DNA of 64,000 nucleotides from Chiloscyllium plagiosum (GCF_004010195.1 NC_057758.1:7870935-7934934), one strand, 5' to 3'. Positions 9,393 to 44,923 are shown, counted from the stretch's first letter. Translations and numbers: made by a program. The notes: generated from the sequence alone by a model not told the origin.

Positions 9393-10044
9393 TTATCTCC
9401 GAATCAATACCCACGGCGATTTTGCAATATTTTTCAACTCTGCTTTGAATTTGCTCCGTGCTGATGAATAAATACAAGGGTTTGGGAAGCAACTAAAATA
9501 CATCAAGATACCTCCCACTTCACGTGCAATAAATTTAGTGTTTGTGAACTTGCCTCTGTAATGAACATTGCTTCTTATATTGGTAAGACACAACCTCACG
9601 GTAATTGTCAACCAGAGCAAGAGAAAGCTTACTGATATTAACGATAATAAAATGATGGATTTTCAGAGGTTCTCCATTTTTGAGTCGATTTGCTTTCCAG
9701 TCTTGGAGCTCTGGAGTTCAGTGCGGAATCGATTCGCCAACACAATACTTTGGACGGTTAATGAATTACACAAGGCAATCAGAGTAATGGGAATCGGAAT
9801 GACGCAGGCGCTGTAAAACCAGACATAACGTACACCTGCGGATGAGGAACAAAATGCTGCCCGTGACCGGCAGCTCCACCACACATTGTTAATAGTTTTC
9901 TCAGGTTCATATTAAATCGCAACTGATACTTTCTTCAACACGACCACAACCGTGATAGTTATGACAAGAATGACTGCAGGTCTCTTTGTGCAGCATTTTA
10001 TTTAAAATTTCTGGCCGCAGATCACGACACATCTGTCACGTCTG
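9393..10044 (-). pseudogene. GPR139-like class A GPCR pseudogene, exon 2 (end of TM3 to C-terminus)
   Basis: One frame reads DRCVVICGQKF*IKCCTKRPA..*YEPEKTINNVWWSC..NSLTVQSIVLANRFR..DSKMENL*KSIILL..SCFPNPCIYSSARSKFKAELKNIAKSPW. It aligns with the 43998-44923 receptor and has 3 in-frame stops. The 5' part presumably lies in the gap. Confidence 0.9.
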
Positions 10045-10578
10045 ANNNNNNNNNNNNNNNNNNNNNNNNNNNNNNNNNNNNNNNNNNNNNNNNNNNNNNN
10101 NNNNNNNNNNNNNNNNNNNNNNNNNNNNNNNNNNNNNNNNNNNNNNNNNNNNNNNNNNNNNNNNNNNNNNNNNNNNNNNNNNNNNNNNNNNNNNNNNNNN
10201 NNNNNNNNNNNNNNNNNNNNNNNNNNNNNNNNNNNNNNNNNNNNNNNNNNNNNNNNNNNNNNNNNNNNNNNNNNNNNNNNNNNNNNNNNNNNNNNNNNNN
10301 NNNNNNNNNNNNNNNNNNNNNNNNNNNNNNNNNNNNNNNNNNNNNNNNNNNNNNNNNNNNNNNNNNNNNNNNNNNNNNNNNNNNNNNNNNNNNNNNNNNN
10401 NNNNNNNNNNNNNNNNNNNNNNNNNNNNNNNNNNNNNNNNNNNNNNNNNNNNNNNNNNNNNNNNNNNNNNNNNNNNNNNNNNNNNNNNNNNNNNNNNNNN
10501 NNNNNNNNNNNNNNNNNNNNNNNNNNNNNNNNNNNNNNNNNNNNNNNNNNNNNNNNNNNNNNNNNNNNNNNNNNNNNN

Positions 10579-13500
10579 GTAAATCTCCTCTGCACCCTCT
10601 CCAAAGCCTCTTAAAGTGTAGCGACCAGAACTCCATACAGTACTCCAAATGTGTCCTTACCAAGGTCCTGTACAGCTGCAACATCACCTCACGACTCTTG
10701 AATTCAATCCCTCTGCGAATTAACGCTAATGCGCCATAGGCCTTCTCACAAGCTCTATCCACCTGAGTGGCAACTTTCAAAGAGCTATGAACATAGACCC
10801 CAAGATCCCTCTGCTCCTCCACCTTACTAAGAACCCTAACGTTTACCCTGTATTCTGCATCCTTATTTGTCCTTCCAAAATGGACAACCTCACACTTGAC
10901 AGGGTTGAACTCCGTCTGCCACTCCTCAGCCCAGCTCTACATCATATCTAAGTCCCTTTGCAGCCGACAACAGTCCTCCTCACTATCCACAACTGCACCA
11001 ATCTTCTTATCGTCTGCAAATTTACTGACCCACCCTTCGACTTCCTTTTCCAAGTCATTAATAAAGATTACAAACAGCAGAGGAACCAGACCTGATCCCT
11101 GCGGAACTCCACTTGTAACTCGGCTCCAGACTGAAAATTTACCATTTACCACCACTCTCTAACTTCGACCGGTTTGCCAGTTCTATATCCAACTGGCCAA
11201 ATTTCCCACTGTCCCATGCCTCCTGACTTTCCGCATAAGCCTACCATGGGGAACCTTATCAAATGCCTTACTAAAATCCATGTACACTACATCCACTGCT
11301 CTACCCTCATCCACATGCTTGGTCACCTCCTCAAAGAATTCAATAAGACTTGTAAGGCAAGACCTACATCTGACAAATCCGAGCTGGCTGTCCCTAACCT
11401 AGCAGGGTCTTTCCTGATACTCATAAATCCTATCTCACAGTACCCTTTCCATTACTTTGCCTACCACCGAAGTAAGACTAACTGGCCTGAAATTCCCGGG
11501 GTTATCCCTATTCCCTTTTTTGAACAGGGGCACAACATTCGCCACTCTCCAGTCCCCTGGTACCATCCCCGTTGACAGTGAAGACGAAAAGATCATTGCC
11601 AACGGCTCTGCAATTTCCTCTCTTGCTTCCCACATAATCCTAGGATATATCCCGTCAGGTCCGGGGTCTTGTCTATCCTCAAGTTTTTCAAAATGTCCAA
11701 CACACCTTCCTTCCTAGCAAGTATATCCTCTAGCTTACCAGTCAATTTCGTACTCTCCTCTTCAATAATACGGTCCCTCTCATTTGTAAATACTGAAGAA
11801 AAGTACTCATTCATGACCTCTCCTATCTGTACCGACTCAATACACAGTCTCCCACTCCTGTCCTTGATCGGAAATACCCTAGTTCTAGTCATTCTCATGT
11901 TTCTCACATACACATAAAAAGGCCTTGGGGTTATCCTTGATCCTACCCGCCAAAGATTTAACATGCCCTCTCTTAGCTCTCCTAATCCCTTTCTTCAGCT
12001 TCCACCTGGCTATCCTGTATCCCTCCAACGCTCTGTCTGAACCTTGTTTCGTCAACCTTATGTAAGCCTCCTTCTTCCTCTTTACAAGACATTGAACCTC
12101 CATCGTGAACCAAGGTTCCCTCACACGACCATCTCTTTCCTGCCTGACAGGTACATACATATCAAGGACACGTCATATCTGTTCCTTGAAAAAGTTCCAC
12201 ATTTCAACGACATCCTTCCTTGACAGCCTATGCTCCCAACTTATGCTCCTCAGATCCTGTCTTGCAGCATCGTATTTACCTTCCCTCAGTTATAAACCCT
12301 ACACTGTTGCACGCACCTATCTCTCTCCATAACCAAGGTGAAAGTCACAGAATTGTGGTCACCATCACCAAAATGCTCACCCACTAACAAGTACCAAATC
12401 CAATATGGCCTCACCTCTGGTCGGACAATCTCCATACTGAGTTAGAAAAGCTTCCTGGACACACTGTACAAACACCGCCCCGTCCAATCTACTTGATCTA
12501 AAGAGCTTCCAATCAATATTTGGGAAGTTGAAATCACCCATGACGACTACCCTGTGGTTTCTGCACCTTCCCAAAATCTGTTTCCCAATCTGTTTCTTCA
12601 CATCTCTGCTGCTATTGGGGGGCCTATGGTAAACACCCAACAAGGTAACTGCTCCTTTCCTATTTCTGACTTCAGCCCGTACTATCTCCAAAGACAGAAC
12701 CTCGTCGAACTGCCTTTCTGCAGCCATTATACAATTTCTAATTAGCAACGCCACCCCCTCCCTTTTAACTACACTCCCTAATCTTACTGAAACATCTGTA
12801 ACCAGGAACCTCCAACAACCATTTCTGTCCCACTTCTATCCACGTTTCCGTGATGGCCACAACATCGTAATCCCATGTACCGATCCACGCCTTAAGTTCA
12901 CCCACCTTATTTCTGATACTCCTTGCTTTGAAATATACACACTTGAACCCATCTCTGTGTCCGCAAGTATTCCCTGTCAGTGCTACCTTCTCCACAACCT
13001 CCCTACATTCTTGGACATGCTGAAAAACAGCTAACCTACTTGCTGGACTACAAGTCCGGCGGATCCCATCCCCCTGCCAAATTAGTTTAAACCACGCCCG
13101 AAGAGTGCGAGCAAACCTACCTCCCAGGATATTGGTGCCCTTCTGGTTCAGGTGCAAACCGTCCTGCTTGCACAGGTCCCACCTTCCCCTGAATGCAGTC
13201 CAATTGTCTAAATACCTGAAGCACTCCCTCCGAGACTTTCCTTGCAGCCACGTGTTCAACTGCACTCTCTTCCTATTCCTTGCTATACTGTCACGTGGCA
13301 CGGGCAACAACCCAGAGATGACCACTCTGTCCGTCCTAGCTTTTAGATTCCAGTCTAACTCCCTGAGCTCCTGAATGACCTCCCCACCCCTCTTCCTACC
13401 TATATCGTTGGTGCCAATGTGCACCACGACTTTTGGCTGCACACCTTCCCCCTTAAGGATTCTGTAGACACGGTCTGAGACGTCTCGGACCCTGGCACCC

Positions 13501-13945
13501 GGGAGGCAACAAACCAACCGAGAGTCTCGCCCATGTCCACAGAACTGCCTGTCTGTCCCTCTTACTATAGAGTCTCCTATAACTAGCGCTCTTCTCCTCT
13601 CCCCCTTTCTCTTCTGAGCCTCAGAGCCGGACCTCGTGCCACAGACCCGATCACTGCAGCTTACCCCTGCTAGGCCCTCCCCCCCAACAGTATCCAAAGC
13701 AGTATACTTTTTGTTGAGGGGAACGACCACAGGGCATCCCTGCACTGCCTGCTTCCTCTACTTCCCACCTCTAACTGTTACCCAGCTACCTCTGTTCTCT
13801 GTCGTAACTATGTCCCTGTAGCTTCTATCTATCATCCTCTCAGCCTCTCGAATAATTCTCAGTTCATCCAACTCCAGCTCCAGTTCCCTAACGCGGTCTT
13901 TGATGAGTTGGAGCTGGCTGCACTTCCTGCAGATGAAGATGGTGG
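10579..13945 (-). mobile_element. Near full-length CR1 LINE (ORF1 Zn/leucine zipper + SGNH esterase; ORF2 APE endonuclease + RT), frameshifted
   Basis: ICRKCSQL..RVRELELEL; VIGDSIVR, CLPGARV, HIGTNDI, DGLHLN; VAITETW, MGDFNFP; NFRPVSLTSVVGK, GVPQGSGL, KFADD. Lies between exon 1 and exon 2 of the minus-strand GPCR pseudogene. Confidence 0.95.
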
Positions 13946-14063
13946 CTCTGACCGTTCCCCCTGGTGTGAGAAGCACCCGGTCATTTCCCGCCTGCATCGG
14001 ACATTTCTAAAAATATCTTTTAACAAGTTGATTCGGAAAAACACGTTAAACATATCAACTCAA

Positions 14064-14133
14064 CAGCGATAGCGACTGCTGCAAATAACGGGTAATAAAT
14101 GTCTTTCAACAGCAGAATTGCAGGCTTCCCCAT
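14064..14133 (-). pseudogene. GPR139-like GPCR pseudogene, exon 1 (splice donor mutated)
   Basis: ATG at 14133 gives MGKPAILLLKDIYYPLFAAVAIA+G, with the same IYYP TM1 motif and phase-1 break as 39660-39804; the donor reads G|TTGAGT instead of G|GTGAGT. Confidence 0.8.
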
Positions 14134-14206
14134 TTTGTGTGAACGTGAACGAACGATTTGGAGACTCTGAAGTTATCTGGGTAGCCAAAGCCGTGGCAAT
14201 GGATGG

Positions 14207-14208
<2 letters not shown>

Positions 14209-14245
<37 letters not shown>
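14209..14245. repeat. (TA)n microsatellite
   Basis: Perfect AT dinucleotide run, ~75 nt upstream of the minus-strand GPCR ATG. Confidence 0.95.
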
Positions 14246-14246
<1 letters not shown>

Positions 14247-15134
14247 CGCATCATTTCTACATGGAAGCAGTCAATTGAATTAATCACAGGTATTTAACAA
14301 ATAAAGTCGGGAAGATTTGTTTTTGGATGGAACTGGAGATCGAAAGAAACAACATTTTCAAACGGGTAAAATAAAATCTGGTTGCTTCCTACCAAAGGAG
14401 CAATGGGAATTTTTCTCAATTACATTGTCAATATCTGCGGTGAACGTCTGGTGCCCTAAATCCATGTGATGTTCATTAATCTATTTCAGGCGTAAACGCT
14501 CTGAGTTGTCGAAACATTTCGTTTCCTGCATCATATAATCTCACACTTTGGTAGTAGTTCTTATTCGGACGGCTAAACTTCCCATGTCCCTACATTCACT
14601 CAGCCAAGTCGTTCTCAATACTACCAGCAAGCTGATGGTATTTCTGATCTCTGGGCGGTATTGCCTTCTCCTGTGCATCAGAAACACTATGTATCGTCAT
14701 CAAAATTTTTGCGTTTGATTTTTGACAATTAATTAGCAACATAGTATTTGAGATACAGGGTGACTCATCGCCGCTGATCGTTGCTCAGGGCCTTAAAGTT
14801 TGCAATCAGTTTTAATGGCTGAATGAATGAATTCTGATGTTTTGATTTGTTTTTTTTTTGTTGAAATCGCTGTCTCCCCATCTCAGTTACCACTTTGCCA
14901 ATTCATTGCAGCTTCCCAAGCAAAATGCGTAGAGTGAGCAGTTTGTACAGCTGGCTTTACAATTCTGTAACAAACTTCGATTTTTTTCCATTACAGTTAT
15001 GCTTTCTGAATCTGAACCACACTTCGTGTCGGGCCGACTGTTCCAAAGAAAAGTTCATGAATGCACGAAGTGAATTCATGGCAAGGTCTCCTCACACTAA
15101 ATTTGATGTGAGCTCACAGCCTGTCTGGTCGCTG

Positions 15135-15480
15135 CCGTGGAAGTTAAATCGACTCAATTCAAATTTTATCAAGAGCAAAGTAAAAGTTAATTTCACCACT
15201 GCAGGGGGATCCAACACGTTTGGCAAAACGCCTCATATAAGGGGTCCTGAACAGCTTTCACATAATGTCTTTATACTGTACTTCGCTTAACCTTGTAACT
15301 CGCTCAAGGACAAGAGCTGTGAACATTCGAACTCCGGTCCACATATGGAGATGCTTTCACATTCCTTTACTGTTGATGTAATCGCTTACTGCCGTTTTGT
15401 TTTCCCTGACACTGCTGAATCGACTTTTTGCAAGACGTTGAGGACGAGGCCTTTCCTCAGACACCACCTACCTATAATAC
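15135..15480 (-). mobile_element. Putative ERV 3' LTR
   Basis: Directly follows env; minus strand has TATA-like gtataaaga (~15270) and a polyA-like ataaaa (~15166). No clear polypurine tract; ends uncertain. Confidence 0.3.
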
Positions 15481-15534
15481 AGCTTTGTGGTGGGATCGTA
15501 ACTTACTCTTGTGTGCCCTGAACATAGCCCATTA

Positions 15535-17328
15535 TCATACATCACACTCTTCAACGTCACGGTAGGGTGGATCCACGCAATCTGAGATTCCTGCTGTGGG
15601 GGCACTTATCGTTTTTCCGTTTGGTATCCCGCTGCACTCATAAGCAAACGCCGAAGGCAGGTACGCAAGTTGGGTCTGAGACAAAGCACCATTAGTAAGA
15701 CCAGTCCTACAACTAGTACAATGTGCCAGATCCAATAAGCCCATCCTCCCCAAAAGAAGGTGAGCCTTCAGAATCAGGAGTCATCTACTGGGGGAGGCTG
15801 TTGTATCGCCGCCTTCATGTGATTTATTACAATACTGATATGTTGGGACTCATCTGTATGAGGTACCTAACATTTTGCAGGCGCCCCTCTCTCGGCCCTC
15901 AGTATGTCGAGTACGAACCGATTTTATATCACTGCTTCCCTTACTGCCCTTAACTCAGTACTAATGAGTGCTAGACCTTCCTCTATCTCATTTGCTTACA
16001 ATAATACACTATATGCGAGTCCATTAATCTTGTTTATTGCCACCGTTGTCCCTGCTCTCAAGAGAATAGACCACCTTATATTCGGTCCTGGTGTAGTCCA
16101 AGGGTCTGTGAGTGTGTAGCCATTCCAATGCCGTGGGATACCCCTTCAGGTTCGCCCGCTACTGGCATTTGGGCCGAACACTGTTGTGCCAGTGGACAGT
16201 ATCGCAGGGGAGACGCACCCCTTTAAACATAGGGGAAAGTGGTGGTACCATTTCGCTCCACAGGCTCATATTATACCCGTCATCACAGTCTGATTATTGA
16301 TAAAGGAACAAGTATTATTGATGATCGTACCATTTGCGTAGGTTGCTGAGCAAGGGTCATTGTTCAAATGCAGTGTCAAATACACTTGGAGATCCCCAAG
16401 TGGAGTCTCCTCAGATTTGTGCAAATTTGTTTCTCCCCTGCCTTCGTGTGGTGGCGCGAGATTTGCCCTAATTGCCTCCCCATATCAGTGTCAGGGCAGT
16501 TGCTTCTCACGTAAGTAGGCAGCTAACATTTCTTGTCCGGCTCTTTGTAATTGGTTCGGCAGTCTGCCGTTGAGCTGTGTCAAAATATATCCAACAAGAG
16601 TAGCCAACCTCTATTCTCTTGCGCTGTATTCGGGCCAACACACAAGCTTTGTTTCCTTCACATTGAGCGATGGTTCTTCTCGCATCCGACTGGCGTCGCC
16701 TTTACGCCATTTATCTCCTGCAGAGCCAATTCCACTACAGCGTTAGATTCGCTCCCGAGCCCTGGCCGACTACATCCGGGTTCGGGCGTGACATTAATGC
16801 GCTCAGCCCCGCTTGAGGTAAGGTCCATAATGAGGTTTGGTTGGTTGCCATGTTACTATCTTCTGTACGTCCTTCTGCATCGGTGGGGGGTGGGGTGTGG
16901 GTGGGAGGAGCGTGGGGGTGTGTGGAGCACTGTACCACTATATTCACCTGCCTATAGATGACGGAGAAGGGTCTATCAATTCCACATCACTAGACTCCCT
17001 CATCGCTCTTCTGAGTCTTGGATTTTATCACCAATGCCCTGGCACCGGCTTCCTTGATAATAGAATACACATCTCCCGTGTCAGGTGTCCCTGTAGCCGT
17101 GTTGGCTACTACTAAGTGCCAGTCACTGGGACCACAAGGATCCCTGCATAAGCATTTGTTGTCCCATTTATAGTCGTCCTGGTTACTAAACGTCCCTGGG
17201 TTGCATATAAAGTTCCATTTAGCATCCTCGAATAAGGTAACTGTCTGCGGCCGCATTCTAGATGTCCCTGCCTTTACGAATAGTCCTGCCGGGGAGCACG
17301 CTAACAGTGTGAGCTGGGGCAGAACCAT
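15535..17328 (-). pseudogene. env: Endogenous retrovirus env (decayed), copy 1
   Basis: Signal-like MVLPQLTLLACSPAGLFVKAG, Pro-rich HPHAPPTHTPPP, CWIY, TM heptad/ISD LISTELRAVREAVI*NRFVLDILRAERG; many stops and frameshifts. Confidence 0.85.
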
Positions 17329-17360
17329 ATTTGTACGAGACTTCTAATCGCTACTTGCAT

Positions 17361-18425
17361 TTATTTGTTTTCTGTGTTGTCCGATGTCTCTTCAACTCCA
17401 GCTGTACGTTTACAATGGCGAGCGTGTACCCACGTGGCTCTTTCGGCGATCTTAACAGCTGTCTGTGCTATAAGAAGCACTCGAAACGGTCCCAGCCACC
17501 TCTTCGTCATCCAGCTTTTCCTAATCATGTCTTTCACCATTATCCACTCTCCAGGTTCTACATCGTGCTGCTTCCCTTCTGCTGGTTTGGGTAGTGAGCT
17601 TTCACTTGATTCTGAATTTGAGGCAAGAATGTCAGTAGTTTTATACAGTAACACAACATCTCATCCTCACAGTGGTCTGTTAGCTGTCTTACATTACATC
17701 TTGGGGAAATTCCTGCATTGGGCGGCCGACCTAAAAAATCTCAAACGGACAAAGATTGGCTTTCCTCTCCTCCAAGATCTCATGTAAATTAGCACAATCG
17801 GAAGCGCCTTTGTCCATGTCAGCTCTCGTTCCATTTTGTTAATTTATGTTAAAGGGTGGCATTCTCTCTTTCCACTGCTGCACTGTTCGCTGGGTGGTAG
17901 ACTCAGTATTGTCTCATGTTCAGTTCCAAATAATTACCGATCTGCTGTAGGGCGTTATTGACAAATGGTGTCCCATTGCCGCTACTAAGACTTCCAGGGA
18001 TGCCCCATCTCGGAGTTATCTCAGTTAGCAAAGTCTTGGCTACTGCACTGGCATTCTGTTTCGACATGGGGAAGGTTTCCACTCATTTGGTAAACATATC
18101 AACTATGACCAGACAATACCCTTTCCCTTCTGTGGGTGTTACTTCAATAAAATCCATCTGTAAATGCCCAAATGGTCTATGGGTTTGGGGTTGTGTTGCC
18201 TGACGCATCAGTATTCCACTCCTCACATTGTTAGTGGCACAGCCAGCACATCGTTCACAATATTTCTGGGAGTAATGCGTCAATTCTTGAGTGTATCAGT
18301 GTGCCGAAATACTGTTGTACGCACCCCTCCCCCCTTTGACGCATTGTCCTTACCATGTGTCAGTTTGCCATAGAATGGGAATAACGATCACAGTAGACAG
18401 GGTTTACCATTAGGGCCACACCATA
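17361..18425 (-). pseudogene. pol: Endogenous retrovirus pol integrase (epsilon/gamma-like, decayed), copy 1
   Basis: CERCAGC, PFGHLQMDFIEV..YCLVIVDMFTK*VE, ITPRWGIP, C-terminal WLGPFRVLL..AVKIAERATWVHARHCK; cut off by the gap. Confidence 0.92.
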
Positions 18426-18925
18426 NNNNNNNNNNNNNNNNNNNNNNNNNNNNNNNNNNNNNNNNNNNNNNNNNNNNNNNNNNNNNNNNNNNNNNNNNNN
18501 NNNNNNNNNNNNNNNNNNNNNNNNNNNNNNNNNNNNNNNNNNNNNNNNNNNNNNNNNNNNNNNNNNNNNNNNNNNNNNNNNNNNNNNNNNNNNNNNNNNN
18601 NNNNNNNNNNNNNNNNNNNNNNNNNNNNNNNNNNNNNNNNNNNNNNNNNNNNNNNNNNNNNNNNNNNNNNNNNNNNNNNNNNNNNNNNNNNNNNNNNNNN
18701 NNNNNNNNNNNNNNNNNNNNNNNNNNNNNNNNNNNNNNNNNNNNNNNNNNNNNNNNNNNNNNNNNNNNNNNNNNNNNNNNNNNNNNNNNNNNNNNNNNNN
18801 NNNNNNNNNNNNNNNNNNNNNNNNNNNNNNNNNNNNNNNNNNNNNNNNNNNNNNNNNNNNNNNNNNNNNNNNNNNNNNNNNNNNNNNNNNNNNNNNNNNN
18901 NNNNNNNNNNNNNNNNNNNNNNNNN

Positions 18926-19944
18926 CCAGAAGGATGCCTTATGCACCAACATGTATTCATCAGCTAATTCTGCTGCCCCGATCACTTCTTGAACTTTTGG
19001 TTCCTCCACATGATTTCTTACCATCTTGCATGCGAGTTTTTTTTATACTCCTGCAGCAGAACAGTCTTTCTTAGAGCCTCAAAGTCTTCTATATTTTTAA
19101 TGCACCCATCCATTTATCAAAATTACAATTCTTAAATCTTTCGAACTCAAAAAAGGTCTAACATTGCTACTTTTTGTGCTTCTGAATGGCTATCTATATG
19201 CTTCTGGTACCAATTCACAAACGCTTAAAATAGCCTGTTTTACCTCTTCAAAATCTCTTGACGCTCATTTGACAGCAGGGCAAATACCTTACGAGTTCTG
19301 CCTACTATTCTGATCTTACTTCCCCATTAATCCTCGGACCAATCTATCTGCCCAATCAATTTTTCAAATGAAATAATGAACGCTTCAACATTTTTCTGAT
19401 CAAAATGTGCCAACGTTTTGACGTATTTGTATATATCACTACATTAACTTTTAATCTCCATCCTGTCAACTTGGCTTTGCTGACTAAGTCACAATTTCTC
19501 CCGTTCAAGTTCTCTATCTTTTTGTTTCGCCCTTTCTTCTGTCCCTTAGTCTCTCATTTTCTTTTCTGCCCCTTTCTCTCTCTCTCATTTTTCTGTCTTT
19601 ACTCAGCAAAGTCCCTTCTCTCTTTTCCTCTTTCTCTCTTTTTTCTGCTATCTCTTTCTCGCTCTCACTTTCCACTCTCTCTTTTTATTCATCTTCGACC
19701 TCGATATTCCTGAATTGTAAATGATGTTTCTCTATCTCCACTTTACCTGTCTGTTTCGCTGACACACTAAAGTATTTGAGTAATTCTCTTACATTTCAAC
19801 TTTATTTTTGTCCTTGGTTAAACCCAAATCTAATTTCTTTGCTAATTCTAAAAGCATGGCCATTCACTTTCCTTCTAGACCTTCTTGCCAAATTTGAGAA
19901 TCATCTTCAAATCCAAGAAGCTCTTTAGCAATTTTAAGAGACAT
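18926..19944 (-). mobile_element. gag: Gypsy (Gmr1-like) gag with coiled-coil and SCAN-like region, decayed
   Basis: MSLKIAKELL..LLELAKKLDL, E/R/K-rich tract, HFDQKNVEAFIISFEK, VPEAYR, VRNHVEEPKVQEVIGAAELADEY. Confidence 0.8.
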
Positions 19945-20588: not shown

Positions 20589-20606
20589 CCCCACGACGAA
20601 CCGCCA
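20589..20606 (-). other. Primer-binding site (degenerate, tRNA-Pro-like)
   Basis: tggcggttcgtcgtgggg, 3 nt after the LTR end ..cgtaaca; resembles TGGGGGCTCGTCC. Confidence 0.55.
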
Positions 20607-22842: not shown

Positions 22843-23578
22843 ATGGATGATGCAATGGAAGGAAATGAGAATTTTATATACCACGAAATAATGTTTCAAT
22901 AATTTCAGAATTTCCCTTCATTTAAAAAAAATATATTAAATGCATCCTATTTTTTCAGCCAGGTACGTAACTGAGAATAAACCCTTATGTTCAAACATTT
23001 GCATCATCTCAAGAGGTGCTCAGTCAAAGTCGATGCAACGCTGATGAACAATTACTCTGATAATTCACTCCTTCATAGTTACCAAACTGAAGATTGTGAC
23101 ACTGAATCATAAAAAAGTGTGGTCTCTCCAATGTGTCACACGATACACGTTTGCCATGGCTGTGACAGACTACCTTGTCATTCTCTTCGACTTGGAGCTA
23201 AGGCACATTCTATTTGTCTATAGAGAACAATTTCCTTTCATGGAGACAATTCCCCTGTGCAGAATACATACTGTACTGTTAATGCAGCCACAGATCCATT
23301 TATCTGGATTACTGCTGCTTTCACATTTGACCGATATGTGACCATCTGCTGTAGTAAGTGGTAAAGTACATATTGCATGGTGGAGATAGCACGTGCGTTC
23401 TTTGAACAATTGCAGTGTTATGCTGGTTAAGGAAGGCCAGTTGTTATTTCATGTTCACAGGTTTCCTTAAAATGTCAAAATACTTGCGTTCATGCTGTTC
23501 TTCAACGTTTAGAGGAGAGTTCAAGAATATCCTTAAATATCCCTTCATTTTAGTTTTTCTATTTTACGATGCAAGTAA
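22843..23578 (+). pseudogene. GPR139-like GPCR pseudogene (frameshifts, stop, TM5-TM7 deleted)
   Basis: Acceptor cttcatag|tt at 23079, then KKCGLS/CVTRYTFAMAVTDYLVILFDLELRHILFVY..LCRIHTVL/AFTFDRYVTICC..SCYFMFTG, jumping to FRGEFKNILKYPF. A putative decayed exon 1 at 22843-22962 ends cca g|gtacgt (lower confidence). Confidence 0.85.
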
Positions 23579-23772
23579 CGAAATTATTTACAAGCAAGAA
23601 TGCCCTTTCATTACCTTTCATGTCCTGGCCTGTGATATTGAATGGGAAGTTGCTGTCATACTCTTCACATGATCAAGCGTTCTCGCGAGGACCATCTTCA
23701 CCGGGACGTGGGTTTCATGTTACGTTATCATTGCAATGGCGATCATGTCATAATTTGAGGTCTGCCTTCACT

Positions 23773-34009: not shown

Positions 34010-34326
34010 ACCATGGAACTCGACAGTCTGGAAACAGATTAATTAGCCCAACAAACCCACACCAGACCAACTGCTTACTCCGGTAATCCTTCATTTCCCT
34101 GAAGACCGCACATAAACTACACATCCTTTAAACTATGAGCAATTCATCATAATGCTCACATCTTTTGACTGTGGATGGACTCAGAGCCACCAGACAGAAA
34201 CCCACGTATAAACAGGGATTACGTGCATACTCCTCACAGACTGTAGCCTGAGATTTTAAATCAAGCGCAGGTCCCTGATGATACATGCAGCAGTGCTAAC
34301 CCCCCTGATGAGCCACCGTGCCACCT
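34010..34326 (-). mobile_element. HE1-like SINE, degenerate
   Basis: Minus-strand head ggtggcacggtggctca..gttagcactgctgc. Confidence 0.65.
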
Positions 34327-34329
34327 GTT

Positions 34330-34990
34330 CTATAGTATGTCAGGATTCGTGGATAAAATGTTTAATAAGGCATATGGTGTACATGCATTTGTGAATCAAA
34401 ACAGAGGGTTTGCGTCCTGGAATTGCAAACATCGTTAGTTCTGCTACAACTGGAGCACAGCGAATGTTCCGGAATCCACATCACAGACTCCCGTCATTCC
34501 ACTACGAAGGGTGAAATGATGATTTGGAGGGCGAAGTGGGAATTTAGCAGAAAAGGTTCAGTTATGAAGAGAGATTACACAAACTGGGGTTACTTGCATG
34601 ACATGAGAACAGACAGAGAGGTGATGTGATTGAGATATGCAAAGTTAGCAGTGGCCCTGACAGGGTGGGCAAGAAGAAATATAATTCCTTCAGGGAAGGA
34701 ACTATGAACAGGTGGCATAGATTTAAGGTCAGGATCAGGCGTATTCGAGGAGAATTGAGGCATTTTTTTCAGACAGAGAGTGGCGTCAATATGGAAATCA
34801 CTAGCTGGAATGTTGCTCAAGGTGAAACCCTTCGTAAAATGAAAGAAGTATTTATATTAGCACGTGGAATGCCAAGCCATACACGGTTGAGGGCCGAGTT
34901 CGGTAAAATGAGAAGCAAAATGTTCATTTGATAGATTAACGGTGCAGAGCGTAGGGGTGCATTAGCCTGTTCCTGTCCTATAGATCTTCA
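34330..34990 (+). mobile_element. CR1 LINE 3' fragment
   Basis: KAYGVHAF, HRFKVR..ELRHFFQ remnants and CR1 3' UTR. Confidence 0.7.
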
Positions 34991-35124
34991 TGTCTGCTCA
35001 CTTGACAAAGGTTTGCTTATTTCACATTACCATTAGCTGAGGCTCCACTGTCACTCACCCCGCCCCCCCCCACGCCTCCCGCTTGTTGAGACACTGTATA
35101 CACAGTGATTGCAATGAACACAGC

Positions 35125-38100
35125 ACATTGAATGTCGAAATTTACAGCACAATACAAGCCCTTACGCACTCGATGTTGGGCCGACCCGTGAAATTATTTT
35201 GATGCCCATTTAACCTATTGAATTCCAGTATTAACCAAATGTCTGTCCAAAGTCCATTTGAATACAATTAATGTCGGCGAGTCTACCATTGTTGCAGGCA
35301 GGCCGCTCCACGCTCCTACTACTCTCTGAGTTAAGAAAATACCCGAAATAACGGTCCTACATCTATCAACTCTCAATCGAAAAAAATGTCTCCTCATGTT
35401 AGCCTTCACCATGAGAGTAAAATGGCACTCACTATCCATTCTATCTAACAATCAGATTATCGCGATTAAGTCTTGAATCAGTCACGTCAAAATCTTCTTC
35501 CATCCAAGGAAACAGCGTCAGTTTCTCCAGTCTTTCCTCGAAAGAAATTTCTTCCATAGCAGGCAGCTTCCTACTAAATCTCCTCTGAACCCTATTCCAA
35601 AGCTTCCACATTTTTCCTTTAATGCAGTGACGAGAACTGAACACAATATTCCAAGAGCGGCTTTCCCATTGTCTTATACAGCTGAAGCATAACCACGTGG
35701 CTCCTAAACTCAATCCGTCTACCAATAAACGCCAACACACCATTTGGATTCTCCAAAACCCTATCAACCATGGAGGTAACTTCCAGGGATTTATGTTCCA
35801 GGACACCGAGATCTCTCTGTTGATCGTCCTGCATTCCTCGCATTCCTTCTGAAGGGAACTACCTCACACTTTTCTGCATTAAAGTCCATTTGCCATTTCT
35901 CAGCCCAGCACTGCAACTTATGTATGACCGTCTGTTAACCACAACATCCTTCAGCATTATTGGCAACTCTGCCTAACTTTGTATCATCCGCAAATTTATT
36001 AACCCTAACTTTCAAACCCACATCCAAATCATTTTCAAGAAATGACAAACAGCAGTGGGCTTAAAACAAATCCTGGTGGCACACCACTGGTAACTGAAGT
36101 CCAAGATGAAAATTTCTCATCAATCAATTAGTCTTCTTTCAAATAACCAATTTCTGATTCAAACCGCTCAAAAACCTTCCATCCCGAACCGCCGTATTTT
36201 TTCAAACATACTATCGTGTGGAACCTTATTAAACGCCTTACTAAAGTCCATTTACGCCATAGCAACGCTGTACCTTCATCCACCTGTTTTGTCACCTTTT
36301 CAAAGCACTTAGTAATATTAATAAAGCACGACCCACTCTTCACAGAACAGTGTTGACGAGACCTAAGCAAACTATTCATTTCCAGATGGTTATAAATTCT
36401 ATCGCTAATAACCTTTTCCAACATCTTACCCTTAACGGAAGTAATGCTCACGGGCATATATTACCATGGTTGTCCCGAGTCCCCTTCTTAAACAAGGGAA
36501 TGACATTTACCGAAATCCAGCCTTCTGGCACTAATTCTGTCTACAATCATGACATAAGTATAGAAGCCAACGTCTCTGCAGTCTCCTCCCTGGTTTGCAA
36601 GAGAATCTGTGGATAAATCACATTCAACACAGGGTCTTACTTATTTTCAAATTGCGAAAAAAAATATCTTTGTCAACCTCAGTCCCATACAATATTGTAG
36701 CCTGTAACTCCATATTCTCAATAACATTGCCCTTTTCCAATGTGAATACTGAGAAAAGTATTCATTACATGCTTCCCTTATTCCTCAGATTCCCCAGTCA
36801 AATTTCCACTATTGTCTTCGATTGGCCTGAACCTTACCCTAGTCATTCTTTTATTCCTGATATACTCGTGGAATGCCTTGTGGCTTTCCTTGATCCTATC
36901 TGCCAACAACCTATTTTGTCCACTTCTGGTTCTTCTTAGTCTTCTCTCTTTAGATCTGTTCTGGCTAACTTGCAACTCTCTCGCCCACTATCCACCGTGA
37001 CAACATATTACTCTCGCTCCTGTTGAGAATGGTCTTTGATATCCTTTCTATATCGCTGCAACAATTCGGAGGCCGATAGAACCCTGCAAACAGATGACCT
37101 CTCCTTTCTTGTTTCTAATGTCATTCGAAATTAATTCAGTAGTTGAGTCCTCAACCGATCTCTCAGCTGCTGCCGTGCTTTCCTTGATTAAAAATGCCAC
37201 ACATCTCTTTTCTTGCTAACACATCTAAATCCCGGAATCTACAACAATTATTCCTGCCCCTCCTCGAATCATGTTTCTGAAATGATCACCAGATTGAAAT
37301 TTCAGGGACCAACCCATGCTGTAAGATCACCCACCTTATTCCGGAGCAAGAGCGAGGTCTTGCACATCGGTTAAAAAAAAAAGAATTCAGGGACGGATTA
37401 TTTTCAAATCTGTAAGAAAATTCCGAAAGCCAAAGTACAAATCTAACTGTGAGTGCTACTCTAGGTTTCTCTAAATGTTGACTTGCAGGTTGAGTCCGTG
37501 GTTAAGAAAGCAAATGTAATGTTGTCATTTATCTCAAGAGAGTTGGACTGTATAAGGAGGGATTTTCTACTAAGAATTTATAAAGCTCTGGTTAGGACAC
37601 ATTTAGAATTGTGTATCTTAGTTTTGGGCCCACACCTCAGGAAGGAGCGACTGGCACTGGAGCATGTCCAGCAGAGTTTCACACGGATGATCCGTGAATG
37701 GTAGGTCTAACATATGATGATGGCTGAGGATCCTGGGAATGTATTCATTTGAGTTTTGAAGGTTGAGGCGAGATCTAATAGAAACTTACAAAATAATGCA
37801 TGGTTTAAAAAGGGTGGAAGCTGGTAATTTGTTTGTCAGGCGGGAATAGTAGGCACGGTGGGCACAGCCTGAGGATTAAAGAGGTTCAATTTAAAACGGA
37901 GATGAAGAGACATTTCGTCAGCCAGAGAGTGGCGGACCTGTGAAATTCATTTCCACGGAGCACAGTGGAGACCGGGACATTAAATGTCTTCAGGGCAGAA
38001 TTTGATAAATTCTTAATCTTGCAAGTAATTAAGGGATTGGGGAGAGTGCGGTAACTGGCGTTGAAATGCCTATCAGCCATGGCTGAATGGTGTAGTGTAC

Positions 38101-39170
38101 TTAATGGGTCGAATAACCTTACTTCCATTCCTGTCTTATGGACTTATGAATGCTCCTGGCATTGAATTACACACATTTAAAACCAACTTGCGGTGTGCCT
38201 GTAACCTCTCACAACCTTGTAAATCTCCCCCAGACCTCACTACCCTCAACCTCCTGTCTGCTGCAACAACAATTGAAGTTCCCATCCGACTGTTGCATTG
38301 GATTATCTTCCCCCCGCCAGCCCCCAGGGAGCAGAAGTAATTTTCTCACCCAGCATATTGATACCACTCTGGTTCAGATGAGACCATTCTGTTTGTCGAT
38401 AACCCACCATTCCCAGAAAGAGCTCCAATTATCCAAGAATCCAAAACTCTTCCAGCTGAACCATTCCTGCAGCCACGTGTTCAAATCCATTCTCTCCCTG
38501 TTCCTTGCTTTTCTAGCATGTGTCACGGGCAACAAACTAGAGATAATAACTCTGTTTGTTCCATCTCTCAGCTTACAACCTAGCTCCCTGACTTTTTGCC
38601 TTAGGTCCTTACCTATCTTCCTACCTCTGTCGTTGGTGACAACTTAGACAACGACTTGGCTCTGCTTCCATTACCCGTTAAGGATAACGATAACATGATC
38701 AGAGACATCACAAACCTTGGCACCTGGGAGAAAACAAACCAATCGTGAGTCACTCTAGTTCTCACAAAAGCTGCTTTCTGTCCTCCTGACTATGGACTCT
38801 CCAATGACTAAATCTCTGCTCCTCTTCCCCTTCCCCTCTGAGCAGCAGGGACAGGCTCTCCACCAGCGATCTGTTCCCCATTACCTACCCCTGTTGTGTC
38901 TTTCCCCCAACATTACCCAAAACGGGACACTTGTTGCTGAGGCGTACCACCACAAAAAATCCCTGCACTGCCGAATGGTCCCTTTCCCTACCCCTGACGG
39001 TAGTCTATTCACCTTCCTCATGTGGCTGTAGAATAACTACCTCCCTGTAACTCCTCAAATGAACTGTCTCTGCCTTCTGAAAGACCCGACGTTCATCCAG
39101 CTCCAGCTGCAGCTCCCGAACTTGGTTCTCGAGGCAGTGGATTTGAGTGTATTTCTCACCGATGAAGTCA
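35125..39170 (-). mobile_element. Long decayed CR1 LINE (ORF1 + ORF2)
   Basis: IEFRSHVVMLQLYKTMGKPLLEYCVQF, PVSITSVKGKMLE, LADRIKESHKAF; ORF1 region 38390-39170 is homologous to 13130-13930. Confidence 0.9.
37346..38149 (+). mobile_element. CR1 3' fragment nested in the opposite-strand CR1
   Basis: VVKKANVMLSFISR..YKALVRTHLE..LEHVQQSFTRMI; the host sequence caccttattccgg|atgctcc rejoins across it. Confidence 0.85.
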
Positions 39171-39403
39171 GCATTGAGCGTGAAATGACTTAATTAACAA
39201 ACGTGCAGAAATCCGTTGAACCATTCTTGTTGTTTAAGAATGATCATTTTCTCCCCATTTCAATACACAGCGTAAAACGAAAAAATATTTATTTTAAATT
39301 ACGTTGTATTCCAACAGAACAACTGTCTTGCTCTCGGTTCAGCCGGCTAAAAGAGCGACACATATATTCTGTAATTTTCTGAGCTTAGTTTAACAAGCGC
39401 ATT

Positions 39404-39605
39404 TGGGTTTCACAAAAAAGACATCTGGATTTTTAAGTGTGACTGAAATCAACTGAGTTTCACATAAAAAGACATCTGGATTTTTAGCTTTGACTGTAAG
39501 TGGAATAAACAATCCAATTAACAAACTCATGTGTTGACGTGTTGATAGCAGTCCCACATCGATGAGTAATGTCTCTCAGGGACTTCTCTCTCTGCTCCAT
39601 ATAAG
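39404..39605 (+). promoter_or_regulatory. Putative proximal promoter of the intact GPCR
   Basis: TATAAG at 39600, 60 nt before the ATG; tctcaggga 39574-39582; caatta 39515-39520; duplicated ~45-nt unit, each copy with CATCTG (39422, 39473). Confidence 0.45.
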
Positions 39606-39659
39606 GATTCGTGGCTTAACTGCACAGAATAATTCTGCACCCACTGACGGGAAAGCGCC

Positions 39660-39804
39660 ATGAATTTCAATGATTTCTCTCCATATTTTCTCGAAGGATA
39701 CGGCATCCATTTATCATGGGTAGATGGAGCCTTCTACATCCAAGGTATATTCCAGGATTTTGAGAGGATATACTACCCATTACTTGCTGTCATCAGTGTC
39801 CCCC
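39660..39804 (+). CDS. GPR139-like class A GPCR, coding exon 1
   Basis: gcgccATG context; MNFNDFSPYFLEGYGIHLSWVDGAFYIQGIFQDFERIYYPLLAVISVP+C, then canonical donor GTAAGT; phase 1 matches the acceptor at 43998. Confidence 0.88.
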
Positions 39805-40189
39805 GTAAGTGCTAAGCGTCCTTATCAATTTTCTAAACCGTGTTGTACTCCTCACTCAATGTCCTGAAACGATTCCTGATCGACGTTTGCTCATAGATCG
39901 ATTGTTGATTCCTCCTTACTCCCCTTGGTATATATGGTGAACTGTAAAGCTATATTAGTCCAGTCTACCTTACGTTGTCGACAGAGTGACTCATGGAGAC
40001 GAGTTGGATTAATTCGCTGCTTCATATTCTCGTGCATATGGATCTATTTATCTATGAACAAATGAGAAAGGTCACCTGCAGTCCTCTGCAGTAGGTTGGC
40101 GATATTTGTTTGATAGACCATGAATAATGTGTCCAAAATTCTGCGTCTGTAGATCCATTGTATTTAATATAAGATGAGAGCATAGCAGG

Positions 40190-40460
40190 ATACACACACA
40201 CACACACACAATCTCTCACAGAATCTCACTTTTACCAAAATGCATACACCCACTATCACTCACATACAATCTTTCAGATTCTTTCCCAAATGCACATAAA
40301 CATTCACTGTCTCACTTTCTTGCTGTATCTATTACAGACGTGCACGCACACACACACACAACACAGACACACACAGACATACAGATACACACACATATTC
40401 ACGCCACAATCTATGACAAACACGCAGATATTCAGACAGTCTCACCTGCACACACTGACA
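40190..40460. repeat. (CA)n-rich low-complexity tract in the GPCR intron
   Basis: acacacac runs at ~40192-40210 and ~40345-40400. Confidence 0.85.
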
Positions 40461-40473
40461 AAATACGCCCCAT

Positions 40474-42440
40474 GTCGAAAAGGGTGGTGCTGGAAAAGCA
40501 CAGTGGAGTGGCAGCATCGCAGGAGGAGGAGAGATGACGTTTAGAGCATCAGACCAACATCAGCAATGAGGGGGTGGGACAAGGGGCTTGAGGGATAAAT
40601 GGGATTTGCAGGGAAAGATAACTGAGAATACGATTTTTAGATTGAGGTTGGCAATGATGGGGATAGTTTGGAAAGGAGGGCGGAGCGGAGAGGTATAGAA
40701 AAATGGAGAGTTAGGACAGTTCATGAGGGCGGAGCTGATTTTGAAGGTTGGCTGTGGAATAGGGTGGGGAGTGGGGTGGGAGGGAGCTAAAGAACTTGGT
40801 GAAATGTACATTGATCCGGTGCAATGGAGGATCCCATGGGCGGAAGATAATGTCTTCTTCCTCCAGGCGTCGCGAGACGAGAGTCTGGAAGTGGAGGAGA
40901 TCCAGGACTCGCATGTTCTTGACTGTTAAGAGGGGGAGGTAAAGTGTTCTGCCACAGGGCAGTGGGATTATTTACTCCATGTTTCCGATAGATGATCTCA
41001 GAAACGTTCCACAAGTAGCCTTCCAGTCACCCCAATTTCGAGGAGATCACACGAAAAGAAATGACAACAGTAGATGTCGTGTGCAGAAGCAAAGCTAAAT
41101 CTCTGTGCAAATGCGAAAGGATCGTTTTGGAACATGGACGGAGGTGAGTTTGAGGTGTGTGTGCAAATTCTGCTCATTCAGTGATGTTAACGAAAGGTGC
41201 CAGGAGTGGATAATGTGGTGGTGGAGGCCGTGGCCCTAACGAGGGAGTCACAGTGGTTGCTGCGAAATGCAGATAGCAGTGGAAAGAGAAATATATCCCA
41301 GGTGGCGGACATGACTGAGGGTGTTAAGTTGTACCTAGAGATTGGTGTGGTGCAAGTTGAGGAGCGGGGAATTCTGACCTTGTTGCAATTGAAGGGGTAG
41401 GGTTTAAGGGAAGAGCTGAGCGAAATGGAGAAGATGCACTGGAGAGTGTTTTCGACTCGGGGGAGAGGAATTTGCAGACCTTGAAGAAGGAGGCCATCTG
41501 GGAATTTCTTTGGTTGATTAGATGCGGCAGATAAATTGTACGGAACGGATCGAGCTTTCACAGATGCCAAGGTGGGAGGAGGTGCTGTGCAGGTAGCTGT
41601 GGGAGCCAGTGGGATTCAATTCGATATCAGTGTTGGGTCTGTCACCGGAATAGAAGACGGAGAGGAAGTGGAGGGAGGTGCCCGAGATGGTCTCAGTGTA
41701 TTTGAGGTCAGGGTAGAAGGTATTGGTGAGGCTAATAAATTGTTCATGCTGCTCGCGGGAGCGGGAGATGTCGCCGATACATTCTTGATGAAGCGGTGAA
41801 AATGGTGGAGATTGGGACCCATGCAGGTGGCCAGGATTGACCCTTTTCACTGCAGGAAGTGGGATGATAGGAAGAAGGTTTTGTTGAGGGTGAGGTCCAG
41901 TTCAGCAAATCGGATGAACATGTCAGTGGAACTGTACCATTTGGGTCATCGGATGAGGACGAATTTGAGGCCATGCAGGCCTTAGTCATGGCAGAAGAAT
42001 ATGAAGGGGGTCTACATATGGTGAAGATGAGGCTTGGGAGCCAGATAAATGAAAGTCATGGGCGAAGTGGATGGATTGGGTGACAGCCCGAACATATGCG
42101 CGGAGAACCTAGACCAAGCTGGACAGGAGAGGGCCGAGGTATGGATTAGCACGTTCTTTGTGGAAGGAGATGTGTGAGACATTGGGTCAACCAGGGCAGT
42201 CAGGTTTGTGAATTTTAGGTCTTGGATCGAACCCGGCAATGCGATGTTGCCGGCTGAGGTTTGAGGCTGTGGATGGGAGATCCCCGAGGTGATGAGTTTG
42301 TGGGCGGTCTGGATGTTGATAGTTTGGTGTTGGAGAGTGAGCTCGTGGTTAAGTGGGCAGCAGGAAAATGCGTCCCTGAGTTGATGCCAGTCTTCAGAGT
42401 TGTGGAGATTAGTGCACCAACCTACCACTGTGCCCGCTTT
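40474..42440 (-). mobile_element. Penelope-like element (RT + GIY-YIG remnants)
   Basis: TNTFYPDLKYTETIS, PTGSHSYLHSTSSH; terminal repeat with decayed hammerhead at 40530-40565. Confidence 0.8.
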
Positions 42441-42474
42441 GTCAACTGGTATGGTGGGTAGCGATAGACATCAT

Positions 42475-43794
42475 CATAGTTCCCAGCAGTGCCTGCCTCT
42501 TCCTCGAGTATGGGGAACAGTGCATCTTCGCAGCTGCACCGGCACCATTACCAAACATTTCCCCCGCTATATTGATGATTGTATCAGCGCCATCTCGTGC
42601 TCCAACGAGGTGTTTGAACAGTACATACATTTTAATAAGACTTTACACCCTGACCACAAATTCACCTGGACCATTTCGCTCACCTCCCTCTCTTTCCTGT
42701 ACCTCTCTATTTCCGTTTCTAGCGCCAGACTCAACACAGAAAGTAATTTCCCGGCTCACTTAGTCGACGACAGCCTTCAGCACATCACTTTTTCTGCACA
42801 TATGCCCTTGAAGTGCACCCACCCAATCACAGGAAGCACAGACCCCCTCCCCACCCCGCCACCCCCAGCTCCTCACCTGCTTCCCCACCAACCAGCAGAT
42901 ACAACGCATCATCCTCGGCTATTTATACCATCTAGAAACAGACCATGCCAGCAGAGGTATATTTCCCGTCCACCCCTCCCTGCGTTCCGCAGAGACCATT
43001 CGCTCCGGACTCCCTTGTTAGGTCCACAGCTCACAGCAACCCACAATCCACTCCCAGCATCATCCCTTGCCAACGTACGACATAAAAAACCTCCGCCGAC
43101 ACCTCTATACTCACCACTGTCCAAGTCCACAAAGGATCCTTCCACAACCGAAAGCAATTTAACTTCACTTCCACACACGCCTTCTACTGTTTTTGTTGCT
43201 CTCACTGTGCACTCCTCCAATTAAAGGAGCCAGGACATTTACTTGCAGAACGTTTCGGAGATCATCTCCGAGACACATGCACAAAGTCCCCATCGCCCTG
43301 TGGCCAAATACTTTAACTCGCCTTCCCAATCCGCCAAATGCATGCACATCCTGAGCCGTTTCCACATCCAACATCTAGCCACCCAACAACTGGATGAATA
43401 ATGCCGCATCTTCCGCCTTTGGTCTTTGCAAACACATGGGATCAATGCAGGTTTCTCCAGTTTCTTCATTCGACAGCACCCCTCTTGTTCCAACTTATTC
43501 CAGAGCCAACATTCCCACTCGACACCACCCTCTCTCTGGAACTGTCCAAACTGTCCACTTTCCTTCCTACAAATCCCTTCCACCCTCCTTTTCGACAAAT
43601 CAAATTAATACCTCATCTCCATCTACCTATCGCATTCTCGGCTATCTCCCCCACAGTCCAACACCTCCCATTGATCTCTCACCCAATTGGCCTATCCCCT
43701 GATTGCTGTTGAAAGCTTATGCTCGAAATGTCGAGTCGACGGCTCATTGGATGCTCCCTGACAGGCTGTGCATTTCCAACACGACATTTTCGTC
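42475..43794 (+). mobile_element. Penelope-like element (RT + GIY-YIG remnants), inverted relative to 40474-42440
   Basis: FPRYIDDCI, HPDHKFTWTIS, PPLPAFRRDHSLR, LAERFGDHL; terminal repeat mirrors 40474-40503. Confidence 0.85.
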
Positions 43795-43997
43795 ACTTTC
43801 TCCAATAACGTTATTTTTACTAATTACCTAAATCAGAGTGCAGAATGCGAATTTGGAAGGTATTCGTTGATTTTTCTGTAATGTGCTTTCTTAATGGGAA
43901 ACACAATGCAACAATGATGGATGGAATGAAGGTTGATGATTGCAGTTTCTTCCCTCATCAAACCTTAAGTCTTATATCAAAGTTTCCATTTCCACAG

Positions 43998-44923
43998 TTA
44001 ATATAGTGACGATTGTAATCCTGTTCCGTGGGAAGTGTGGACTCTCCAGTTGTGTCACTCTCTATCTGATGGCCATGGCAATGGCAGATTTACTGGTGGT
44101 CATCCTTGACCTGATATTAAGACATATTCCGATTGTTTATTCAGACGTCTTTGTTTTCTTGGAGGATATAGATGTATGCAACATTCATGCTGTCCTGCTT
44201 TATGCAGCATCCGATTGCTCAGTCTGGTTCACCGTCACATTCACCTTCGACCGCTTGGTGGCCATTCGTTGCCAGAAGTTGAAAACTAAATATTGTAGCG
44301 AGAAAACAGCGGCGGTTGTGCTCGGAACAGTGACTGTACTCAGCTTCTTAAATAATATCAGCTGGTATTTTATGTATAACGGTAATTATCGTTTATCTAA
44401 TCATCCTATGTTTTGTGTTATGGAATTGAGTGATGATAATTTGGAGTTATGGGCCATAATTGAAAATGTTCACTACATTCTCACACCCTGTCTCCCATTC
44501 TTCTTGATTCTGCTACTCAACATTTTCACTGTCAGACATATTGTAGTGAGCAGCAGAGCCCGCAGGAGACTCCGGGGGTACAGCAATGGGGAGGGTCCTA
44601 GAGACGTGGAGATGGAGAACCGAAGAAAGTCAATTGTTCTTATGTTTCTGATTTCTGGCAACTTCATCCTGCTGTGGGCAGTGTTTGCCGTGAATGCAAT
44701 GCTTGAACGAATGGATAATCTGGGCTATTTGATTTATGTGGCCGAATATGTCCTAGAATTAGGATTTATTCTCCAGCTCCTGAGTTGCTGCACAAACACT
44801 GGAATCTACATCGTGACTCAGAATAGGTTCAGAGGACAATTCAAGAATTTGGTGATATATCCCTTCAGTCTGATTACTCATTTAATCAAACGGCAAGTTA
44901 ACTCCTGCTCTTGGTTCCAATGA
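43998..44923 (+). CDS. GPR139/GPR142-like class A GPCR, coding exon 2 (spliced protein 356 aa, 7TM)
   Basis: Acceptor tttccacag|tt; open frame NIVTIVILFRGKCGLS, AMAMADLLV, CNIH, SVWFTVTFTFDRLVAI, PMFC, LTPCLPF, ENRRKSIVL, FILLW, LSCCTNTGIY, RFRGQF to TGA; 145+926=1071 nt. Confidence 0.93.

Follow-up and report, generated by a model that had tools for sequence, protein, structure and literature searches.

What are several related receptor genes, most of them dead, doing side by side in the genome of a shark? The question is raised by 64,000 nucleotides of Chiloscyllium plagiosum (GCF_004010195.1 NC_057758.1:7870935-7934934, one strand); this whole stretch is called the window, and all coordinates are counted from its first letter. 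An earlier note on this DNA had read positions 9393..44923 as three paralogous genes for seven-transmembrane (7TM) receptors on both strands, one intact (gene A) and two dead (pseudogenes B and C), and had proposed a chemoreceptor family. The three genes were confirmed, and a fourth, present twice (relic D, 2982-6466), had been missed: the window now has one intact gene among at least four family loci, with at least three of four dead. [quoted passage not shown] The best explanation, to which we give a probability of roughly one half, is that this family is a ligand-diverse sensing repertoire of cartilaginous fishes, likely external chemosensory.

Gene A is an intact two-exon gene of a class A (rhodopsin-like) GPCR, as predicted from its sequence, splicing included. 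A six-frame translation of the window contains a single long GPCR frame (43940-44920), which overlaps its exon 2. The two exons (Table 1) join to 1071 nucleotides or 356 amino acids without any internal stop, and exon 1 has the top exon-1 profile score of the window (46.3). The protein matches the Pfam model 7tm_1 alone (E-value 3.3e-18; 66.6 bits at a cut-off of 30.5). Its AlphaFold model, made from an input alignment of 40 sequences, is a 7TM bundle (pLDDT 75.9), and all 50 Foldseek matches listed are class A receptors (TMq 0.45-0.63), in a search that was not discriminating. D2.50, the pair of C3.25 and a cysteine in extracellular loop 2 (ECL2), D-R3.50, P5.50, W6.48 and N7.49-Y7.53 are present and near invariant in 117 relatives, while P6.50 and P7.50 are substituted across the receptor family. 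Gene A is 68% identical to the whale-shark protein P0003 and 64% identical to the zebra-shark protein P0005. About 1 kb behind the gene lies an imperfect palindrome of 670 bp (76%; window 45919-46591), inside which there is a two-copy tandem of 70 bp (46064-46204).

The family was sampled with two queries against proteins clustered at 90% identity. With the protein of gene A exon 2 (3106 candidates), 1857 proteins matched at E<=0.001; this is not a family count, because names are available for the best 120 only. All of these 120 are from sharks (ten species), 119 are called GPR139, and their identity to gene A is 62-70%, with one at 51%. The query P0123, from a second subtype (subtype II, with gene A in subtype I), gave 925 of 1722 at E<=0.001; among the 120 listed, 119 are from elasmobranchs and one has no name. 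When the two best-120 lists are pooled and species labels are assigned by hand, there are at least 81 distinct 90% clusters in Heptranchias, at least 55 in Heterodontus and at least 52 in Pristiophorus; some of these may be isoforms, haplotype copies or faulty models. The low genome-wide copy number that the earlier note had named as speaking against its proposal was thus not found. Clusters at 50% identity number 565 at E<=0.001, 146 at E<=1e-10 and 107 at E<=1e-30, many of them fragments; 20 of the 21 checked full-length clusters with at least 35% identity are from sharks, rays, skates or Callorhinchus and the remaining one has no name. Dozens of full-length open frames are present in each species, across lineages that range from chimaera to rays.

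Turnover is visible in a FastTree phylogeny of 234 of 239 proteins (five fused or tandem models were excluded; the sample is biased to best matches) and the three window genes. Gene A and pseudogene B fall into subtype I and pseudogene C into subtype II (support 1.0), and whale-shark and zebra-shark proteins adjoin gene A and likewise pseudogene C; the two pseudogenes are thus of different subtypes, as previously suggested. Two-leaf tips join proteins of the same species in 61 of 78 cases, compared with a mean of 16.6 and a maximum of 27 in 1000 shuffles of the labels, and there are single-species clades of 26, 17 and 11 proteins. The birth-and-death family that was first suspected from the window alone is borne out by these tips and by the cluster counts. 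Several family models (P0020, P0101, P0096, P0018, P0122, P0151 and P0238) have N-termini derived from a long interspersed nuclear element (LINE) or other foreign N-termini where the short genuine exon 1 should be; public models are therefore often wrong at their 5' end.

Which parts of these proteins vary? With generic residue numbers anchored on motifs, we compared 51 representatives of the subfamilies (median pairwise identity 45%) at 31 pocket positions, which we take to be the standard ones of class A. At these pocket positions the chemical-class entropy is 1.39; it falls to 0.92 at 39 other outer positions of the transmembrane helices (TM; p 0.004) and to 0.45 at the 70 inner ones (p 2e-8). 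The structural positions C3.25 with its ECL2 partner, D2.50, R3.50, P5.50, N5.58, N7.49 and Y7.53 are invariant. Within subtype I, represented by 117 close relatives of gene A (the best 120 minus three tandem models), variation is limited to loops and rim: extracellular loops have 1.94 bits versus 0.66 bits for intracellular loops (p 7e-7), and a polar core is almost fixed (D2.57, R2.61, H3.28, D3.37, E5.39, H5.42, R6.59, E7.36, Q7.42). Between subfamilies the pocket varies too. The contrast of pocket and core is that of a many-ligand repertoire, as the proposal of a sensory family would have it, and very probably reflects recognition of many ligands; it does not name a tissue.

In such a repertoire each receptor would bind different water-soluble ligands, and all members would signal via one shared G-protein pathway or transducer. 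The variable positions would face the ligand, going by the class A pocket set assumed above, and shared coupling is suggested by the fixed inner halves of TM3, TM6 and TM7 together with conserved intracellular loops (ICL) 1-3. The charged core and variable rim of subtype I suggest ligands that are peptides or small molecules of polar or charged character. Its members would recognise one charged group common to these ligands, for example the terminus of an amino acid or peptide, and the rim would tune each receptor for side chains. The subfamilies would be tuned to different ligand classes.

Does the name GPR139, which most of these proteins carry, point to the ligand? Human GPR139 (structures 7vug and 9m42) is the best solved-structure match of gene A (a weak one, E 1.8e-5), of the family profile (E 3.6e-17; 65.6 bits versus 59.7 for the next) and of both bony-vertebrate relatives described below, and is outside the 50 listed fold matches of gene A; after it, the profile matches the receptors for platelet-activating factor (PAF), angiotensin (AT2) and cysteinyl-leukotrienes. 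GPR139 and GPR142 are class A orphan receptors that L-Trp and L-Phe activate. GPR139 too has two exons and a phase-1 intron inside TM1, and gene A resembles it in retaining H5.42, W6.48 and N5.58. There are also differences: in the alignment to gene A, GPR139 has an aspartate at 3.25, where all 117 close relatives in the shark family have the cysteine paired with that of ECL2; N7.38/7.39 is a phenylalanine in gene A; P6.50 is mostly lost in the family; and GPR139 and GPR142 are single-copy and conserved, whereas the shark family is multi-copy with a variable pocket. A true GPR139 (81.3% identical to mouse) and a true GPR142 (58.7%) are reported from the catshark (PMC13200729). Judged by these comparisons, gene A and its family are not orthologues of GPR139 or GPR142, and 'GPR139-like' is valid as the name of a branch and wrong as a statement of orthology. 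The residues reported as required for GPR139 activation at its Trp/Phe site are F3x33, H5x43, W6x48 and N7x38 (PMC5430874); gene A has Y, H, W and F at this site, and across the 51 representatives W6.48 alone of the four is fixed (entropy 0.28 versus 3.15, 2.82 and 3.10 bits). As the family is not orthologous to GPR139 or GPR142 and W6.48 alone is fixed, Trp and Phe cannot be transferred as ligands, and the analogy drawn in the earlier note does not hold. RefSeq and UniRef models called 'probable G-protein coupled receptor 139' (for example XP_038654761.1, XP_007902368.1 and XP_055521957.1) belong to the same family, their names being automatic. Some other members are automatically named opsin-like, allatostatin-A receptor-like, CCR6-like, vasopressin V2-like or capa receptor-like, and these unrelated names hide the family.

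Because relatives exist in coelacanth, a teleost and salamanders, the lineage is not restricted to sharks. These bony-vertebrate relatives are few-copy, with one 50% cluster found for each, and are of two types: a strongly conserved salamander cluster (XP_069092602.1, P0364), in which Pleurodeles, Ambystoma and Lissotriton share one 90% cluster, and a group of a coelacanth protein (XP_005988539.1), a teleost protein (KAM4562537.1) and two UniRef entries without taxon (together P0363, P0365, P0380 and P0383), which are misnamed GPR139 and lack W6.48. Compared with a subtype II protein of a shark over about 318 amino acids, both types show 31-32% identity (137-139 bits). The ICL2 motif of the family is found in three of three salamander proteins and the ICL3/TM6 motif in two of three. 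In a tree of 77 rows, from which GPR139 and GPR142 are absent and whose only support values are those of the Shimodaira-Hasegawa-like approximate likelihood ratio test (SH-aLRT), the salamander genes are sister to the chondrichthyan clade (82.5; 76.2 for the chondrichthyan clade, both modest). The predicted salamander proteins are the closest non-chondrichthyan relatives of the family. The family would likely have originated by amplification of an ancient non-mammalian orphan receptor related to GPR139, which stayed few-copy in bony vertebrates. Next to GPR139/142, the table of a review has rows called 'Orphan 139-like' and 'NMOGPR', with no members given (PMC5207463); as a guess, these rows may be the bony-vertebrate orphans described here. 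The coelacanth-type group has a conserved charged pocket.

In its clusters, mixed orientation, pseudogenes, lineage-specific expansion and variable pocket with a conserved signalling face, the shark family is like the OR, TAAR, V1R/ORA, V2R/OlfC, T2R and FPR/MRGPR families; it differs from them in belonging to another class A branch and in its two-exon genes. The Pfam models 7tm_4, V1R and TAS2R have no match at E<=1 in six family proteins, which match 7tm_1 only. Among invertebrates, the nematode srw receptors are chemoreceptors, and look-alike clusters in our searches include FMRFamide-receptor-like and Srw-bearing invertebrate sets, which are leads only; distant matches without a taxon name are 26-29% identical. 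For Lymnaea, about 450 FMRFamide-R-like receptors are reported, for which the authors prefer a neuropeptide-receptor role (PMC11589774). Such expansions share with the shark family the repeated amplification of this GPCR branch and differ from it in being separate events.

The cells in question would sense the outside world, either as microvillous neurons of the olfactory organ or as solitary chemosensory cells in the skin, gill or mouth. Sharks are described as having a large olfactory organ and few known receptors (PMC10116579). According to the same source, all catshark olfactory neurons are Go/TRPC2-positive microvillous neurons, V2Rs dominate the four receptor families tested, with v2r1 at 'moderate frequency', and the GPR139-like shark family is outside these four. 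A bolder version holds that the family is the main odorant-receptor repertoire of cartilaginous fishes, with dozens to hundreds of genes per genome, one or few of them per Go/TRPC2 microvillous neuron, independently recruited from the GPR139/FMRFamide-receptor-like branch; this we regard as doubtful.

Several observations weigh against an external chemosensory repertoire for many ligands. The RNA data lend it no support and do not contradict it: reads were placed on window 39500-45850, and in RNA runs of a near relative (tissue not recorded) coverage of exon 2 is low, partial and paralogue-like, coverage of exon 1 is zero, the repeats of the intron are equally deep, and the splice joint 39804-43998 is seen in none of the runs X21, X22 and X23. 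Run X22 gave nothing, X21 gave 107 reads, 96% of which continue unlike the window, and X23 gave 101 contigs. A search of sequencing runs found no run with half of the query words and no matching run recorded as RNA. The DNA run X1 (3130 contigs) has a summed depth of up to 57146 on exon 2 versus 336-994 behind the stop, which is not usable as a copy number. In the catshark, the 50 most specific brain-plus-olfactory transcripts contain no GPCR (PMC11979771); this absence says little, because the family is split over many genes. V2Rs already show a sparse olfactory pattern (PMC10116579). On the side of the proteins, the difference between pocket and other outer positions is borderline when plain residue entropy is used (2.39 versus 2.02, p 0.052). 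The four coelacanth-type relatives, which are 50-58% identical, agree at 18 of the 31 pocket positions, a degree of conservation not significantly above that of other positions (p 0.17 and 0.31). As the deep pocket of subtype I is nearly fixed, many copies may share one ligand class. Finally, both best-120 lists are biased to best matches, and the cluster counts may contain poor gene models as well as isoforms and haplotype copies.

Immune and nociceptor GPCR families such as FPRs and MRGPRs also show clustering, turnover and pocket variation. The main rival, which we consider unlikely, is a role in immune or barrier surveillance, with FPR/MRGPR-like receptors of leukocytes, mast-like cells or sensory endings for microbial, parasite or damage peptides. 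Its genomic and sequence signature would be identical to that expected of chemosensory receptors. The charged, fixed core and variable rim of subtype I would fit peptides with a common terminus, PAF, AT2 and cysteinyl-leukotriene receptors come directly after GPR139 among the structure matches of the profile, and MAS1 and related receptors are reported as missing in cartilaginous fishes (PMC8455134), which would leave such a role open. The nearest characterised relative by sequence, however, is GPR139, which is a neuronal amino-acid receptor and not a chemoattractant receptor.

Mostly neutral amplification, in which unequal crossing-over in repeat-rich clusters copies few functional genes while most copies drift and die, is improbable. 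It is consistent with the window itself, where at least three of four loci are dead amid LINE, Mutator-like element (MULE) and other repeats, where a 2-kb duplication copied relic D and where gene A is without RNA support in the runs examined. The many full-length open frames from chimaera to rays, the invariant structural positions and the concentration of variation on the outside and in the pocket speak against it and indicate selection on the proteins. About as improbable is the sensing of nutrients or peptides inside the body (endocrine cells of the gut, pancreas, brain, gonad) as an amplified GPR139/GPR142 role: GPR139 is the best solved-structure match throughout and gene A retains H5.42 and W6.48, with a tyrosine in place of F3.33, but the catshark already has true GPR139 and GPR142, and an internal ligand rarely calls for receptors by the dozens to hundreds whose pockets differ and which are constantly lost.

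The sequences are already in RefSeq under automatic names, and the family itself is undescribed in the literature searched. A full-text search, with most subscription papers outside its reach, found no description of this receptor expansion, and a term search of a GPR139 review (PMC12208981), of a survey of vertebrate GPCRs (PMC6504862) and of a paper on a shark genome (PMC9826928) found no mention of the family. A family entry is absent from the supplements of PMC13188829 and PMC8455134, where the GPR142 orthogroup has 70 proteins from 35 taxa. The relatives in bony vertebrates, the comparison of pocket positions, the subtype that links the pieces of pseudogene C, and relic D are new here. 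The whale-shark paper describes a paucity of GPCRs in cartilaginous fishes (PMC8455134); this is contradicted by a family in which several sharks each have 50-80 or more distinct proteins, whatever their function. Should sensory cells of the olfactory organ or skin express the repertoire, it would count as a chemoreceptor family new to vertebrates, and existing catshark tissue RNA-seq would allow a direct test of the puzzle that shark smell poses. As the main odorant repertoire it would outnumber shark V2Rs and overturn the view of sharks as trading discrimination for sensitivity; with an immune role it would be an unrecognised surveillance system. The few-copy relatives of coelacanth, teleost and salamander offer a route to the ancestral ligand, for which salamander P0364 is a candidate.

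Table 1. Family loci and associated features in the window
Feature	Position	Strand	Description
Gene A, exon 1	39660..39804	+	145 nt; codes for the N-terminus and TM1 up to its middle; donor GTAAGT at 39805, phase 1
Gene A, intron	39805..43997	+	4.2 kb; GT...AG ends; repeat fragments inside, many repeat-like contigs map onto it
Gene A, exon 2	43998..44923	+	preceded by CAG acceptor; rest of TM1 to stop; subtype I
Pseudogene B, exon 2 remnant	23079..23585	+	subtype I; acceptor retained; frameshifts, stops, TM4-TM7 deleted
Pseudogene C, exon 1	14064..14133	-	23 codons and one base; N-terminus of subtype II type; donor TT, not GT
Pseudogene C, exon 2 remnant	9393..10037	-	subtype II; runs from the end of TM3 to the stop codon, with three stops in frame
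Assembly gap	10046..10578		533 N; TM1-TM3 part of pseudogene C exon 2 may lie here
Decayed LINE inside pseudogene C	10579..13960 (start approximate)	-	GDSL-esterase ORF1, endonuclease and reverse transcriptase remnants
Relic D1	2982..4020	-	ECL2/TM5 piece (4020-3913) and TM7/helix 8 piece (3095-2982), repeat fragment between; very decayed
Relic D2	6359..6466	-	second copy of TM5 piece; inside 96.8% duplication

The dead loci differ in how much of the gene plan can still be read. Pseudogene B aligns with gene A exon 2 for about 385 nucleotides without long gaps, carries several frameshifts and stops and the large TM4-TM7 deletion, and is 49% identical to gene A over 98 amino acids. Its AG acceptor (23077-23078) has the same phase as that of gene A, as had been stated; the weak exon 1 candidate proposed for it was not recovered, as neither of two exon-1 profiles found anything above background in the window.

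For pseudogene C, the exon 1 shared with gene A stood up to closer inspection: against a profile of 72 subtype II N-termini, scored over six frames of the window, it is the top hit (39.6), followed by gene A exon 1 (18.3), with -6.1 for the best sequence from outside the family. The shared phase-1 intron, said to be clearly seen, is in fact indirect. The donor site (14063-14062) reads TT, and the acceptor and TM1-TM3 are not visible because the LINE (about 13960-10579) and the 533-N gap (10046-10578) occupy their place; a shared intron would therefore be an inference for this gene. The exon 2 piece (10037-9393) is 64% identical to whale-shark P0122 and 30% to gene A. As both pieces, 14133-14064 and 10037-9393, are of subtype II, they are very likely one gene. 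The LINE, which we take to be CR1/L2-like, matches PF13472 (E 9e-12) and also PF03372 and PF14529. A promoter common to genes A and C was rejected (alignment score 104, shuffled maximum 138). An (AT)18 microsatellite (window 14209-14245) lies about 75 bp upstream of the start codon of pseudogene C.

Relic D rests on protein matches (tblastn E 2.9e-6 for D1 and 2e-8 for D2; 10.4 and 9.6 bits for D1 and 16.6 bits for D2 with a hidden Markov model), since its DNA alignments to gene A score only slightly above shuffles (190 versus 153 and 204 versus 178). It is carried twice by a direct duplication (3092-5093 and 5532-7549; 96.8% over 2021 bp) which flanks an N gap (5221-5531) and is either a tandem copy of recent date or the result of two haplotypes having been assembled one after the other.

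No further host genes were recognised in the window: the remaining frames scanned are transposon-derived or without Pfam match. An element of 2.75 kb is present in two inverted copies (window 15682-18425 and 61274-64000) that are 93.5% identical; none of six frames from or beside it matches Pfam, a terminal inverted repeat was looked for in the first copy without success, and it is classed as an unclassified young repeat. A fragment of a MULE transposase lies at window 53970-54512 (PF10551, E 1e-9).

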